A stretch of 64,000 nucleotides of DNA, from positions 84,885 to 148,884 of the forward strand of contig DASUEU010000058.1 in NCBI GenBank assembly GCA_036274895.1, in the 5' to 3' direction. This document shows, one piece after another, positions 7,345 through 12,113 of this stretch (its first letter is position 1; each line of letters begins with the position of its first letter). Position numbers and translations under genes: made by a program. This stretch comes from Thermoanaerobaculia bacterium. GTDB taxonomy: Bacteria > Acidobacteriota > Thermoanaerobaculia > Multivoradales > SZUA-115. The notes beneath the pieces are model-generated. The model did no database searches and was not told where the DNA came from. It saw only the letters and a list, made by a program, of their open reading frames with translations.

Positions 7345-8484
7345 CTAGCGGCCGAAACGGCGCTGGCGCTGGTGGTAGGAGCGCAGGGCCCGCAGCAGGT
7401 CGATCTTGCGGAAGGCGGGCCAGTTGGTGTCGCAGAAGTAGAACTCGGAGTAGGCGCTCTGCCAGAGCAGGAAGCCCGAGAGGCGCACCTCACCGCTGGT
7501 GCGCAGGATGAGGTCCGGCTCGGGCAGCCCCGAGGTGTAGAGGTGGGGCTCGATGGTCCGGTCGTCGAAGCCGGCGATCACCTCGTCGAGCTCCTTGCCC
7601 TGGCGCTTCGACTCGGTGAGGAAGCTGCGGAAGGCGTCGGTGATCTCTTCGCGCCCGCCGTAGGCCATGGCGATGTTGAGCTGGAAGCGCTCGTAAGCGG
7701 CGGTGACGCTCTCTGCCCTCTCGATCGCCGCCTGCAAGCTGTCCGGCAGCAGCTCGAGCTTGCCCAGGTAGCGCACCCGCACCTCGTTGGTGTGCACGTC
7801 GGAGTGTCCGGCGAGGCGCAGGGTCTCGCGCTCGAAGAGCTGGAGCAGGGCCTCCACCTCGGAGGTGTCCCGGGAGAGGTTGTCGAGGGAGAAGCTCCAC
7901 ACCGTGACCACCGGGATGTCGAGCTCGTAGCACCAGGAGAGGACTTCCCGCAGCTTCTCGGCCCCCCGCTCGTGGCCGAAATGCGAGCCGCCCAGCCCGC
8001 TCTCCCGGGCGAAGCGACGGTTGCCGTCCATGATGATGCCGATGTGCCGGGGCAGCCGCCAGGTCGGGACCTCCTCCATCAGGCGCTTCTCGTAGAGGAG
8101 GTAGAAGGGCCGCTTGATGAAGCCCTTGAGCGTCTGCCAGACGAAGGAGAGGCGGCGCGGGCGTGCTTTGGGCGCGGGAATCGAGAGAGGTGCGGTCAGG
8201 GGTTCACCCTCGGGTGCCGAAATGCCGTGGAGGCATGATGTTACACCAAACGGCGAGCTGGGGCGGGGCGCCCCCCTCCGGCTGGCTTCCGTCCGTGGCC
8301 GAGCCTCGCCGCTTCGCTCTCGCCCGGGTGGTCCAGCGGTGCTGGAAGAGGAACTTCCTGCTCGCGCTCGAAGCCGCCGGGGCGAGCGAGGATGAGGCGG
8401 GCGGGATCGCGGCGGCGATGAGCCTGGGGGAGGCGGGTTGGAGAAGGCTGGGGGGTGGTGAGGTGAGTGCTCACTAACGTTCAT
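7345..8484 (-). CDS. cis-isoprenyl (Z-prenyl) diphosphate synthase, UppS family, Rv1086-like; true start uncertain
   Basis: The C-terminal 263 aa align along their full length with the UppS fold: HIGIIMDGNRRFA, YGGREEI, LILRTSGEVRLSGFLLWQSAYSEFYF, RRFGR. From memory it is closest to Mycobacterium Rv1086 short-chain Z-FPP synthase (PFYLLYEKRL.. matches PLYRLYELRL..). The 120-aa Pro/Arg-rich N-terminal stretch of the ORF looks non-coding, but no ATG/GTG/TTG exists in frame near the homology boundary. Confidence 0.75.
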   Translation of the reverse strand: MNVSEHSPHHPPAFSNPPPPGSSPPRSRPPHPRSPRRLRARAGSSSSSTAGPPGRERSGEARPRTEASRRGAPRPSSPFGVTSCLHGISAPEGEPLTAPLSIPAPKARPRRLSFVWQTLKGFIKRPFYLLYEKRLMEEVPTWRLPRHIGIIMDGNRRFARESGLGGSHFGHERGAEKLREVLSWCYELDIPVVTVWSFSLDNLSRDTSEVEALLQLFERETLRLAGHSDVHTNEVRVRYLGKLELLPDSLQAAIERAESVTAAYERFQLNIAMAYGGREEITDAFRSFLTESKRQGKELDEVIAGFDDRTIEPHLYTSGLPEPDLILRTSGEVRLSGFLLWQSAYSEFYFCDTNWPAFRKIDLLRALRSYHQRQRRFGR

Positions 8485-8602
8485 CGCCTGAGCGGCGCCG
8501 CCAAAGGCGGTGACCGCCTCCAGGCGCCGGGTTCTGCGTGGAGGTCACGCGCTCCAGGCTCTTCGCGTAGTCGATTCCTGGTGCGAAGCCCGTCGAAGCC
8601 CG

Positions 8603-9154
8603 TCATCGCGCCGCTCTTGCGATCATACGCAGAAACTGCTGAAAGACGAAGTACAGGGCAACCCCTGTGAGTACCCATAGCACCAGCGTAGCGAGCATGA
8701 TCGATGCGCTTCGGTAGTGGAGCCAGGTCCCGGCGCCGATCAGAGGAGCCTGCAGGAACAGAGCGCGCAGTATCCTGACCCTGCCTCTCCGGCGAAGTAG
8801 GCGATCGCGCTGTCCCTCACATCCAAGGAGCCTCTCTTCGGCCGAGTGGAAGAGAGCTCCGACCGCAGGAGCAGCGCTGCGCTGGTGGAAGCGGGTCCAG
8901 TTCCGCCCGTTGTACCATTTCAGGTAAGGAAGTGACGCCAGATAGCACAGATGATCGACCACGGTTCCGAGTGAGTAGCAAGCAACGAGAAGGACGAAGA
9001 GCAAGGATGGTCCCAGGTTGTCCGGGAGTCGAGTTATCCAGTCGATGAGAGACTCCGGGGAGCTGCCGCTCACGGCCAACCCAAAGAGGCTGATCCAGAG
9101 GGCGGCGAGGCAGCCAACGACGAGGTACTCCGCGATGAGTGTCGTCCAACTCAT
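8603..9154 (-). CDS. hypothetical 4-TM membrane protein (low-GC island gene C)
   Basis: 183 aa with four hydrophobic helices and ordinary codon/amino-acid composition in a ~52% GC segment. I recognise no family. Confidence 0.5.
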   Translation of the reverse strand: MSWTTLIAEYLVVGCLAALWISLFGLAVSGSSPESLIDWITRLPDNLGPSLLFVLLVACYSLGTVVDHLCYLASLPYLKWYNGRNWTRFHQRSAAPAVGALFHSAEERLLGCEGQRDRLLRRRGRVRILRALFLQAPLIGAGTWLHYRSASIMLATLVLWVLTGVALYFVFQQFLRMIARAAR

Positions 9155-9274
9155 GACTCACCTATGGTTCGCTACTAACCGCCCTTTGCCGTCGCCGAAC
9201 GTTCATCGCCTCACCGCCGCGCACCAGCGCGGGCAGTGCAGGCAGTGGTTGGGCAACTCTAGATGACGTCAGGT

Positions 9275-10405
9275 TCACTGACTTGCCCCAATCTCTTTGA
9301 GTTTAGAAGCCATATCAAGAACCTCTTGCACCGCAGTCTTAGGTGCCTCGCCGAACGGTTGAGGCGAGACTGAGACTGTCTTTACGACCTCCCTTCTCAG
9401 AAGAGCACTTGCCTCTTGGTCAGAAGCAATGAGTTGCAGCGACTCAGCCTTCTGAGCAAGGACAGCAGCCTGGTGGCTGTGGTATTTGTAGACAGAAAAG
9501 AAAATCTGAACAAGCAGGAGAGTAAGCACAGCGATGGTAGCGCGGATCGCAATATCAGGCCAGCTTGTTTGTGACTGGGTCTGAATCGTCTTTAACAACT
9601 GCTCATAGCTCTGGCTATGGCTATAGTTTTGACGAATCTCGCTGAGGAGTTCCGGTGCGCGCTTCTGGAAGAACTCTCGGGCTTCGCTTGAGACAGCTTC
9701 CTTCTCAAGACGCTCCATTACGGTGGCCAGTCGAAGCACCTTGTACCTCTCGGCCTCTACGTCACGGAGGCGCTCGACATGACTACTCATCCAGAGTCCT
9801 ACAGAGGCGCCCCCGCCGATGAAGACAAGAACAAACATCGCGGCCATACTGATTCGGCTCGTTCGCTCGGCTGCAAGGCTTCTGGCGTAAAGCCTTCGAG
9901 TTACCAGACCTAGAGCCTTCTGCGATGTCTCTGGCTCTAGTGCAGATGGCAGAGACACAGAGGCATCGCTATCCTCAAGGCCTTGGTCCCGGTGCGAGTT
10001 TGGAGCCGACTGAATGTCAATGCCTGACGAGTGTTCAGCACGGGCTACCCGAGAGAGGAGCACCGAGAGTACTCCGATTAGAGATATTCGCACCCCCGCG
10101 GTAATCGCTTCGGCGACGCCGGCCGGCACACTCAATATGTATTGTGAGAATGAAGCTACAATTAATTCCTGGGCAAAAAAAAGGAGAAAAAAAGAATGAG
10201 GCAATACTTCCCATGGCCCAGATAGTTTACCAAGGCGGACAACATGGCGTGCTATCTGCGCCATCAGAAGTGCGGAGACAAGCCCCAAGAGAAACCACGC
10301 GTCGATACGATTGCCAGATAAGAAGCGGACATAACTAGTCGTAACCCCGACGACAGCTGCCAAGGCGACAAGCCAGGTGCTCGAGCTGGGTTGCACGATT
10401 GCCAT
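9275..10405 (-). CDS. hypothetical multi-pass membrane protein with central coiled-coil (low-GC island gene B)
   Basis: Likely starts MAIVQPSS at ATG 10405, preceded by a GAAGGGGGAAG RBS. The listed ORF extends to 10540 through an inverted repeat. It has four N-terminal TM helices, a fifth TM, an Arg/Glu-rich coiled-coil, a further TM and a C-terminal tail. Confidence 0.55.
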   Translation of the reverse strand: MAIVQPSSSTWLVALAAVVGVTTSYVRFLSGNRIDAWFLLGLVSALLMAQIARHVVRLGKLSGPWEVLPHSFFLLFFAQELIVASFSQYILSVPAGVAEAITAGVRISLIGVLSVLLSRVARAEHSSGIDIQSAPNSHRDQGLEDSDASVSLPSALEPETSQKALGLVTRRLYARSLAAERTSRISMAAMFVLVFIGGGASVGLWMSSHVERLRDVEAERYKVLRLATVMERLEKEAVSSEAREFFQKRAPELLSEIRQNYSHSQSYEQLLKTIQTQSQTSWPDIAIRATIAVLTLLLVQIFFSVYKYHSHQAAVLAQKAESLQLIASDQEASALLRREVVKTVSVSPQPFGEAPKTAVQEVLDMASKLKEIGASQ

Positions 10406-10472
10406 CTTCCCCCTTCCAATATCTAGCCTCTCAGAGTGTTGAGCTCTGTCGCCCAACGTTTGAGCTGAGGCG

Positions 10473-10559
10473 CCCGCAACGGCAGGCCGCCTTGGCCGGG
10501 CAGCCGAGAATGGCCGAAGGCTGAGCGGCTGCCCGGCCAAGGCGGCCTGCCGTTGCGGG
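10473..10559. repeat. perfect 34-bp inverted repeat (19-nt loop)
   Basis: cccgcaacggcaggccgccttggccgggcagccg at 10473-10506 is exactly the reverse complement of 10526-10559. Confidence 0.9.
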
Positions 10560-10591
10560 TCGCATCGAGCGAAGGGTTAGGCATCGCCGGG

Positions 10592-11596
10592 CTACGCGAG
10601 CTTGGACTGAAGAAAGCGAACGAGTGCTATCGCGCCGTCGATGCCTTGCTCGACCTGTGGGGCCTCGACGTCCTTCTGCGCGATGTTTCCGTGAACCAGA
10701 TCGTTGCGAATGCCACGTAAGCGATCAACTGCATCGATCGCAGCTTGAACCCTGCGGAGGTCGGTCTTGCCGAGAGAGAGCGGAAGGACGATGTTTAGGA
10801 GGTTGTTGAACGTAAGTTCATCACGAAGGCGCTTGATCTTGTTGTTGCTGAAGCCGCTCTCCTTGAGGGCTTTGAGCCCGTATGCTCGAAGCAGCGTCTC
10901 GGAGATGATAGACGCCTCGATGGCGGCTGCACGTAGCTCCCGCCAGCCAGCTTTCCCTCGGATTCTGTAGAGCTCAAGAAGCTCGCCTTCAGGAAAGGTC
11001 CCATTGTCAGCGGCGCGCTGCATGTCGCGCCAGCGTACGGGAGTGACTAGTTGCGCGGCGGTGTACAGCGGGTTGCGGCCGCGTGGTTTGGTTAGCTTCG
11101 GCTGAAATGGGGTGAACGTCGTTCCGTCAACGCTCCACTCAACTTGACCGCGAGACAGTCTGCCGCCGGTAAAGAAGTTGGTCATCGACTCGGGACCCAT
11201 CCGCATCAGGTAGCGCACCTTCCCAGCTGAGTACAAGAGGGCCTCGAACTTGGTGTGCGCTTCTACGTAGGCATCGTAAATGGCTTCGGCGGCAGTAGCA
11301 CTAGCCGTGCCTTTGCGCGAGAGACTTTGGACGAGATCCGGGGGCGCTGGGGCGTAGTGAAGTTCGATTCGACCACTTGGGAAGAGGATCACGTCTCGCT
11401 TCCAAGGATGCTTCTCTTCCTCCAAGTAGACGAGCACCTTGGCGCGCGTCAGCTGCATGGACAGCGGGGTATCGTGATCCTGCTTCCGCCACTTTGATGC
11501 GCCAAAGCTCGGGAAGTCGATCGGCCTGCGGATGATGAGCTGCGACATACAGTGGATGCGATGCCTAACCAGTAAGCGTCTTTCCGAAGTCCGCAC
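10592..11596 (-). CDS. hypothetical protein with C-terminal HEPN-like R-x4-H motif (low-GC island gene A)
   Basis: The ~110-aa alpha-helical C-terminus contains ..DRLRGIRNDLVHGN.. (RNxxxH) at 10691-10708. The alternative ATG start at 11548 would give 318 aa. The N-terminal 200 aa match no family I recognise. Confidence 0.5.
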   Translation of the reverse strand: MRTSERRLLVRHRIHCMSQLIIRRPIDFPSFGASKWRKQDHDTPLSMQLTRAKVLVYLEEEKHPWKRDVILFPSGRIELHYAPAPPDLVQSLSRKGTASATAAEAIYDAYVEAHTKFEALLYSAGKVRYLMRMGPESMTNFFTGGRLSRGQVEWSVDGTTFTPFQPKLTKPRGRNPLYTAAQLVTPVRWRDMQRAADNGTFPEGELLELYRIRGKAGWRELRAAAIEASIISETLLRAYGLKALKESGFSNNKIKRLRDELTFNNLLNIVLPLSLGKTDLRRVQAAIDAVDRLRGIRNDLVHGNIAQKDVEAPQVEQGIDGAIALVRFLQSKLA

Positions 11597-11972
11597 GTGG
11601 TTGGGTATGGCAGATCGCCCCGGGGGCCATCGAGGGCTCCCCGGAGACGCGCGGATTTCGGAAAGACGTGCGTTGGACGAAGCCGCGGGCCGCTGGCGCA
11701 GGTCTATGGAGTTTGAATCGAGCGCTGGTGAAGCGGCGCAGGGAGGGGGTCCTGGTCTGAGCCTCGCTCGCCGGGGCGCGGGTGCCGCGCCAGCGGGCGT
11801 GCCGAGCCTCCGGGATCTGATTCCTGCTGCTTAGCAGTTGCACGGTGGAGCGATTTTAGCACTGCGCACCTCCGGGCGCAGAGAGGCTTCCTGGGGCCCG
11901 AGCTGTGGGCCGAGCGAGGAGGGTTGGGATCATGGGGCAGCAGCTCCGGCGCCGGGCGGAGGGCGGGCGCGA

Positions 11973-12113
11973 GCCACCGCCGGTGACGACCGTGCGCTCG
12001 TGGGGATGAAAGGTCAGGGTCTGGCTCCAGGTGTAGAGGGCGGAGAGCAAACCGATTTCCGCACCGAGGTGCTTGGGGTCGGCGGCGCCGAGGGCGTCCA
12101 GGAACTTGAACAA
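11973..12113 (-). pseudogene. IS91-family (Y2 HUH) transposase remnant
   Basis: The fragment ..LLSALYTWSQTLTFHPHERTVVTGGG.. matches the conserved IS91 Tnp block (..LHTWGQNL.LHPHLHCLVTGG..) with the HUH histidines degraded. It is only ~47 aa and the surrounding frames are broken. Confidence 0.4.

Follow-up and report, generated by a model that had tools for sequence, protein, structure and literature searches.

We analysed a 64,000-nucleotide stretch of DNA from a Thermoanaerobaculia bacterium (contig DASUEU010000058.1, positions 84,885 to 148,884; hereafter, the whole stretch is "the window"). A low-GC island in the window carries three genes, one of which encodes a 318-residue, two-domain protein (Table 1). 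The original prediction, made from the letters of the window, had placed a HEPN-type catalytic motif in the C-terminal helical domain of this protein. Our analysis supports that claim: the C-terminal module is very probably a HEPN domain, an assignment carried mainly by HEPN profile matches, by the invariance of the motif among homologues, and by the topology predicted by AlphaFold2 (AF2), with a fold search in a supportive role only.

Table 1. Features of the HEPN gene and of the island that contains it (coordinates are those of the window).
Feature	Coordinates	Strand	Description	Basis
HEPN gene, coding sequence	10592..11548	-	318 aa; ATG at 11548, stop codon 10592-10594; two-domain protein	Open reading frame list, database match, homologue N-termini
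N-terminal domain, residues 1-167	11048..11548	-	Mixed beta/alpha, family-specific	AF2, no family matches
HEPN module, residues 168-318	10595..11047	-		hhalign, AF2, PF18735 matches
Helices of the HEPN module			Two leading helices; helix-1 188-201; helix-2 205-230; hairpin 235-242 + 247-258; helix-3 261-285; helix-4 296-317
Helix-2 segment E211-A-S-I-I-S-E217	10898..10918	-	Candidate auxiliary acidic active-site residue(s)	Translation, conservation
Segment ending T246-F-N-N-L-L-N252	10793..10855	-	Signature GxSxxK ... TFxxLLN, common to sister clades	Translation, conservation
Predicted catalytic motif R281-N282-D283-L284-V285-H286	10691..10708	-	Rx4H, polar residue after R	Translation, invariance in 61/61 homologues
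Low-GC island	8500..11650	.	51-62% GC versus ~70% in flanks; HEPN gene and two membrane-protein genes	Composition profile, flanking Pfam matches
Membrane protein, 376 aa	9275-10405	-	Predicted; no family assignment
Membrane protein, 183 aa	8603-9154	-	Predicted
IS91-family (Y2_Tnp) transposase remnant	11856-12113	-	85 codons, just past the upstream edge of the island

An RNxxxH motif near the C-terminus

The plus strand at 10691-10708 reads gtgaaccagatcgttgcg, and its reverse complement, cgc aac gat ctg gtt cac, encodes R-N-D-L-V-H. Translation of 10708..10691 on the minus strand thus confirms an R-N-x-x-x-H motif near the C-terminus, with 32 residues between H286 and the end of the protein. 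The residues initially labelled R297, N298, and H302 are the correct motif residues, but had been numbered from an upstream in-frame GTG; the true numbers are R281, N282, and H286. Specifically, the longer open reading frame (ORF) that includes the GTG (10592..11596, minus strand) specifies 334 aa and contains the peptide AIDAVDRLRGIRNDLVHGNIAQ around the motif, while all aligned homologues begin at the ATG at 11548 (MSQLIIRRP...), and the database entry [quoted passage not shown] (318 aa) matches the window protein at 100%.

A generic Rx4-6H carries no evidential weight by itself in this arginine-rich window, where it occurs 3.7 times per 318 aa in stop-free six-frame segments; conservation is decisive. 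The more specific RNxxxH pattern occurs three times in 84,977 aa of six-frame open segments (0.011 per 318 aa), and R281-H286 is the sole Rx4-6H within the 318-aa protein.

Conservation of the motif and of a helix-2 glutamate

A search of 5.8 billion proteins identifies 105 homologues, every one of them unnamed. The family alignment comprises 61 full-length homologues having 37-89% identity to the window protein, and the counts over 61 members given below refer to this set. The alignment reveals 15 invariant columns among 318, including R281, N282, D283, and H286, with six of the 15 located inside the segment L277-R278-x-x-R281-N282-D283-x-x-H286, and with the adjacent residues G287 and N288 conserved in at least 93% of sequences. 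The invariance of the motif R, N, and H, which had been proposed as a check, holds in 61/61 family members. In sister-clade relatives that have other N-terminal regions, the pattern RN[DEKST]x[VI]H is retained in 19 of 20 sequences, and the remaining sequence has Y in place of H.

Conservation extends to two other segments of the module. In predicted helix-2, E211 is invariant (61/61) and E217 is nearly so (60/61); the position of E217 is acidic in 20/20 sister-clade sequences, while E211 is mostly replaced there by Q, L, H, D, or S. In the segment that follows, S234, L251, and N252 are invariant, and the same GxSxxK ... TFxxLLN signature is present in distant relatives.

The ratio of nonsynonymous to synonymous substitution rates (dN/dS) is 0.06 and 0.085 in comparisons with two homologues. 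This is thus a functional coding gene under strong purifying selection, and the flagged motif is its most constrained segment. These observations bear on whether the HEPN domain could lack catalysis and do no more than bind nucleic acid or a ligand. Activity has been lost in many HEPN domains (PMC3710099), but inactive HEPNs typically lose motif residues (PMC3710099), whereas here the motif R, N, D, and H are invariant in 61/61 members, the helix-2 Glu is conserved too, and purifying selection is strong; we consider an inert domain highly improbable. An active RNase is probable.

Profile matches and predicted fold

The window protein matches the Pfam family HEPN_RiboL-PSP (PF18735) at 19.6-19.8 bits (E ~9e-4; gathering cut-off 28.4 bits), over residues 250-332 of the 334-aa ORF and profile positions ~108-188 of 191. 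When family members are scanned singly, PF18735 matches 58 of the 61 at E <= 0.01, with a best E of 4e-8; approximately 12 of the 61 reach E <= 2e-6, which corresponds roughly to the gathering level, the equivalence of E 2e-6 and 28.4 bits being an extrapolation. HEPN_Apea, HEPN_MAE_28990, and HEPN_Cthe2314 each match a few members, and no competing Pfam family recurs among the 61. The PADLOC Csx1 and CARF-HEPN models give weak matches to HEPN parts in up to 24 of the 61 members.

AF2 models were obtained for the whole protein (predicted local distance difference test score, pLDDT, 89.3; predicted template-modelling score, pTM, 0.62) and for residues 165-318 alone (pLDDT 89.1; pTM 0.78). The C-terminal part is modelled as helices 170-181, 188-201, 205-230, 235-242, 247-258, 261-285, and 296-317. 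In particular, helix-3 closes with R-N-D-L-V, H286 opens the loop 286-295, the last helix follows, and an inserted helical hairpin (235-258) separates helix-2 from helix-3. The published HEPN layout includes a conserved helix-2 acidic residue in many families (Anantharaman et al. 2013, PMC3710099), and the predicted topology agrees with that canonical layout point by point. The search for a HEPN bundle in the predicted fold, also proposed at the outset, therefore has a positive outcome, at the level of the models. The region had been described as all-helical and ~110 aa long; it is all-helical in the AF2 models, but the conserved helical module is longer, ~150 aa (residues 168-318).

No hit reached E <= 0.001 in a Foldseek search of the PDB (best E 0.35-0.6). 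The low-RMSD (root-mean-square deviation) matches with appreciable probability are HEPN proteins only: 2hsb (AF_0298; probability 0.84, TM-scores 0.49/0.58, RMSD 4.5 Å), 2q00 (TM-scores 0.51/0.62), Csm6 (6tug), and Csx1-Crn2 (8y7g). The remaining helical bundles, one de novo design excepted, superpose at >10 Å. Neither the protein nor the family profile retrieved anything relevant from the PDB by sequence, NCBIfam and PHROGs gave no matches, and ten distant relatives compared with Pfam and PADLOC gave sub-threshold HEPN matches only and no well-annotated sister family. The likeness to Swt1 and Cas13 that had been suggested is not upheld: the nearest relatives are the RiboL-PSP-HEPN family and, by fold or profile, Csx1/Csm6.

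One HEPN module behind different N-terminal regions

The AF2 model of the N-terminal domain comprises strands 4-11, 29-32, 37-42, 58-65, and 137-140 and a long helix, 81-107. The N-terminal part, given as 200 aa in the original prediction, was left unassigned there and remains so, with no match in Pfam, NCBIfam, PHROGs, PADLOC, PDB sequence searches, or PDB Foldseek searches. The conserved residues of this domain are mostly aromatic, aliphatic, Gly, or Pro, and none is catalytic-looking, which suggests that the domain serves in binding or assembly and is not an enzyme.

An exhaustive hidden Markov model (HMM) search of 1.84 billion cluster representatives at E <= 0.001 yielded 306 proteins. 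Approximately 76 of these, at E <= 1e-30, constitute the family proper, fragments included, and another group of proteins, 330-570 aa long, match the profile only at positions ~170/200-316. Twenty such relatives share the succession E(helix-2) ... GxSxxK ... TFxxLLN ... RN[DE]xVH, one with Y for H. Comparison by hhalign with two clades that have other N-termini gives probabilities of 99.2% and 99.4%, with alignment over residues 168/174-318 only. From the limits of this alignment, the HEPN module is a unit of ~150 residues that is joined to three or more unrelated N-terminal regions, including that of the window protein. The occurrence of the same HEPN module behind two other N-termini is in keeping with a "variable sensor plus constant effector" design.

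A solitary, horizontally acquired gene

The neighbourhoods of 13 independent loci were compared over ±4 kb. The HEPN gene is solitary and horizontally acquired, and it enters variable low-GC islands by itself, as a cassette. Its nucleotide sequence resembles that of the closest relatives (82.7% over 993 nt) only up to ~20 nt beyond the coding sequence, and the GC content of the gene is lower than that of its locus in 5/5 genome loci checked and in the window. In loci L001/L007 and L015, Nitrospira-type contigs from two diverged genomes, the gene occupies the same spot, between a MutL-like gene and plsY, with cargo that varies: BrnT/BrnA-like genes in one, and an outer membrane protein (OMP) beta-barrel gene with T5orf172 in the other. 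The spot looks like an integration hotspot. The window protein is 89% identical to the L015 copy, and this degree of identity between a Thermoanaerobaculia protein and a Nitrospira-type one implies transfer between phyla. Other neighbourhoods contain DUF927 or DUF3987 primase elements, a nest of transposases and insertion sequences, or MazF with IS3, and one contains a TIR-metallophosphatase adjoining an antitoxin plus Macro pair. The character of these surroundings is mobile, toxin-antitoxin, or defence-like.

The overall spread is patchy, covering Acidobacteriota, Nitrospira, Beta- and Gammaproteobacteria, Peregrinibacteria, and Zixibacteria. A sequence-pattern-dependent search of representative genomes from 185,579 species found six full-length loci, in Nitrospira, Beta- and Gammaproteobacteria, Zixibacteria, and one unclassified bacterium. 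This distribution bears on a housekeeping role, in which the protein would process RNA or bind nucleotides and would not be a conflict gene. Some HEPN proteins do process RNA, such as Las1 and the KEN domains of Ire1/RNase L (PMC3710099; bioRxiv 10.64898/2026.02.22.705581), and in Nitrospira the gene has one fixed chromosomal position. That same position, however, carries variable cargo, the spread is sparse and patchy, the GC content is atypical everywhere, and the neighbourhoods are of mobile-element or toxin-antitoxin type, all of which makes a housekeeping role improbable.

A phage- or plasmid-borne origin is unsupported: no relatives were found in phage or plasmid collections (tblastn) or in IMG/VR (scan). 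Separately, the betaproteobacterial copy in locus L009 (8001-8949; 78% identity) falls into two or more frames (8292-8531 and 8518-8952), and is either a decaying pseudogene or the product of an assembly frameshift error.

The sole neighbour family common to mutually non-syntenic loci is a BrnT-like toxin, present in 4 of the 13 at varying positions. The BrnT-like genes (L001 4438-4710, L008 7227-7553, L009 9153-9425, L010 1649-1912) lie within ~1.5 kb of the HEPN gene and on its strand, either upstream or downstream, and the L001 copy has a Pfam BrnT_toxin match. The two genes are probably neighbours because they share toxin-antitoxin islands, not because they work as a pair.

Another reading is a two-part toxin-antitoxin system, with the HEPN protein as the toxin and a small adjacent protein or an RNA (AbiF-type type III) as the antitoxin. 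HEPN toxins are often neutralised by partners, including MNT, RnlB, and RNA antitoxins (bioRxiv 10.64898/2026.02.22.705581); a distant relationship to AbiD/AbiF has been described for the RiboL-PSP-HEPN family; and the gene lies in toxin-antitoxin-rich regions, with the BrnT-like toxin nearby in the four loci above. But no neighbour ORF of at least 60 codons is common across loci save BrnT, itself a toxin and variable in position; no MNT gene was seen nearby; and nucleotide conservation ceases ~20 nt outside the gene. As to an RNA antitoxin, tandem-repeat arrays flank the gene neither in the window nor in six homologous loci, and no Rfam family is matched, apart from spurious sub-threshold hairpin matches. 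A two-part system is, on balance, unlikely.

The island in the window

The island is flanked by uppS and a DASS-family transporter gene. Its three genes might be thought to form one system, in which the RNase is coupled to the two membrane proteins as effectors: all three are on the minus strand within the same low-GC island, and HEPN-transmembrane (HEPN-TM) associations are known in the superfamily. Against this, neither membrane protein adjoins any of 12 HEPN homologues, two examined loci of homologues of the 376-aa protein lack both a HEPN relative and a relative of the 183-aa protein, and between the HEPN stop and the next start there are a perfect 34-bp hairpin and a gap of ~190 nt. Such a system is very unlikely, and we reject the membrane proteins as HEPN partners, absent as they are from every homologous locus. 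Only four homologues of the 376-aa protein turn up in 5.8 billion proteins, at 37-43% identity.

The ORF at 11856-12113 matches the first 30 positions of Pfam Y2_Tnp at 22.3 bits (cut-off 20.9 bits); in the homologous locus L018, an intact IS91-type transposase is close by.

Two inverted repeats border the HEPN gene. The first, at 10473-10559, between the HEPN stop (10592) and the next start (10405), is a perfect 34-nt repeat with a 19-nt loop; it is single in the window, lacks a T-run, gives only spurious sub-threshold matches to miRNA precursors in Rfam, and could be a transcription barrier, an element resembling REP or MITE sequences, or a recombination site. The second, of 22 nt (11577-11598/11647-11668), is 91% complementary, has a 48-nt spacer, and is located 30-120 nt upstream of the HEPN start. 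It could form a hairpin with a regulatory or terminator role; homologous loci do not keep it, since nucleotide similarity stops at 11567. A scan of promoter and terminator consensus sequences was uninformative. The uppS ORF (7345-8484, minus strand) has 379 codons, with its Pfam domain starting at residue 151; its first ~150 codons are Pro/Ser/Arg-rich and are probably an over-extension, not real protein.

Proposed function and mechanism

From the conservation, architecture, and distribution of the family, we favour, with some reserve, a single-protein, trigger-activated RNase toxin, i.e., a self-contained toxic effector with an abortive-infection defence or addiction-type function. The individual parts of this proposal differ in strength: RNase activity, as stated above, is probable, while a trigger-activated role in defence or as a toxin is only somewhat better than an even bet.

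In the mechanism we envisage, the C-terminal 150 residues would form the HEPN bundle and serve as the nuclease. Two HEPN domains would pair, with their two Rx4H motifs facing each other to create a composite active site, and RNA would be cut without metal, leaving 2',3'-cyclic phosphate ends. Pairing, a composite site, metal-independent cleavage, and 2',3'-cyclic phosphate products are established HEPN biology (PMC3710099; PMC13043305; bioRxiv 10.64898/2026.02.22.705581). The N-terminal domain, the proposed sensor or regulatory module, would hold the site closed, possibly via oligomerisation, until a trigger binds. We propose such self-restraint because an RNase toxin that acts alone, with no antitoxin, has to keep itself in check.

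Four points weigh against this proposal. First, the self-inhibition of an antitoxin-less RNase is an assumption. Second, the window protein scores below the PF18735 gathering threshold. Third, apart from weak Csx1 HEPN similarity, no known defence-system model in PADLOC is matched. Fourth, the absence of relatives from the phage, plasmid, and IMG/VR collections leaves no direct link to phage.

A more specific version is that the protein is an unlisted single-gene abortive-infection system, in which the N-terminal domain is a new kind of sensor for infection and releases a HEPN nuclease that acts on anticodons or mRNA. We regard this version as tentative, falling somewhat short of even odds. 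If it is true, the two sister clades would represent parallel sensors for other triggers.

The family is a new, uncharacterised one of a well-known kind, and no PADLOC defence family includes it. If the trigger-activated RNase toxin is correct, the family would supply a further compact immune or toxin protein of the "sensor plus HEPN RNase" type, from lineages scarcely covered by defence catalogues (Acidobacteriota, Nitrospira, candidate phyla radiation bacteria, and Zixibacteria). With one effector module behind at least three N-termini, it offers a natural system for studying how HEPN nucleases stay off and switch on. The general picture of HEPN function is unchanged: numerous HEPN families are known but uncharacterised, and part of this one already carries a Pfam tag.

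Comparison with known systems

RiboL-PSP-HEPN (PF18735; "Ribo L-PSP-HEPN" in PMC3710099) provides the best profile for the C-terminal module and has the same RNxxxH-type motif. The contexts that give that family its name are fusion to endoRNase L-PSP and an operon with ParB (PMC3710099). In contrast, no L-PSP domain is present in the 61 members, no ParB was seen among the Pfam-annotated neighbours of the examined loci, and the N-terminal domain of the window protein differs; the module sits at the edge of the family to which a distant AbiD/AbiF relationship has been ascribed.

Csx1/Csm6 are linked to the window family by the weak Csx1/CARF-HEPN profile matches (up to 24/61 members) and by the presence of 8y7g and 6tug among the best Foldseek matches. 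The similarity is limited to the HEPN core and is statistically non-significant; unlike Csx1/Csm6, the window family lacks a CARF domain, and the examined loci have no CRISPR-Cas neighbourhood.

AF_0298 (2hsb) and the SSO HEPN protein (2q00) give the best superpositions of the C-terminal model (TM-scores 0.49-0.62, RMSD 4.5-4.9 Å, ~135-140 columns), at 12-14% identity. Those proteins are stand-alone HEPN proteins of 120-126 aa in toxin-antitoxin-type contexts, whereas the window module has additional leading helices and the conserved helical-hairpin insert.

HepS (PMC13043305), ApeA (bioRxiv 10.64898/2026.01.26.701840), and DARNA/PD-T7-3 (bioRxiv 10.64898/2026.02.22.705581) are single-polypeptide abortive-infection HEPN nucleases. 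In each, an Rx4-6H HEPN is inactive in an oligomer until a trigger that acts outside the active site activates it, whereupon tRNA anticodon loops are cut; ApeA and DARNA carry a non-catalytic ligand site or domain, while HepS is a solo HEPN protein. Neither the window protein nor any of the 61 members matches the single-gene HEPN systems in PADLOC (ApeA, PD-T4-2, PD-T4-5, PD-T7-3/DARNA, and the Abi families), and there is no detectable sequence relationship to the three nucleases, with no PADLOC ApeA or PD-T matches and no PDB sequence matches. The arrangement also differs from that of DARNA, in which HEPN is N-terminal, whereas in the window protein it is C-terminal. HepS, ApeA, and DARNA nevertheless serve as the working analogues of the window protein, and they likewise reside in mobile or variable regions.
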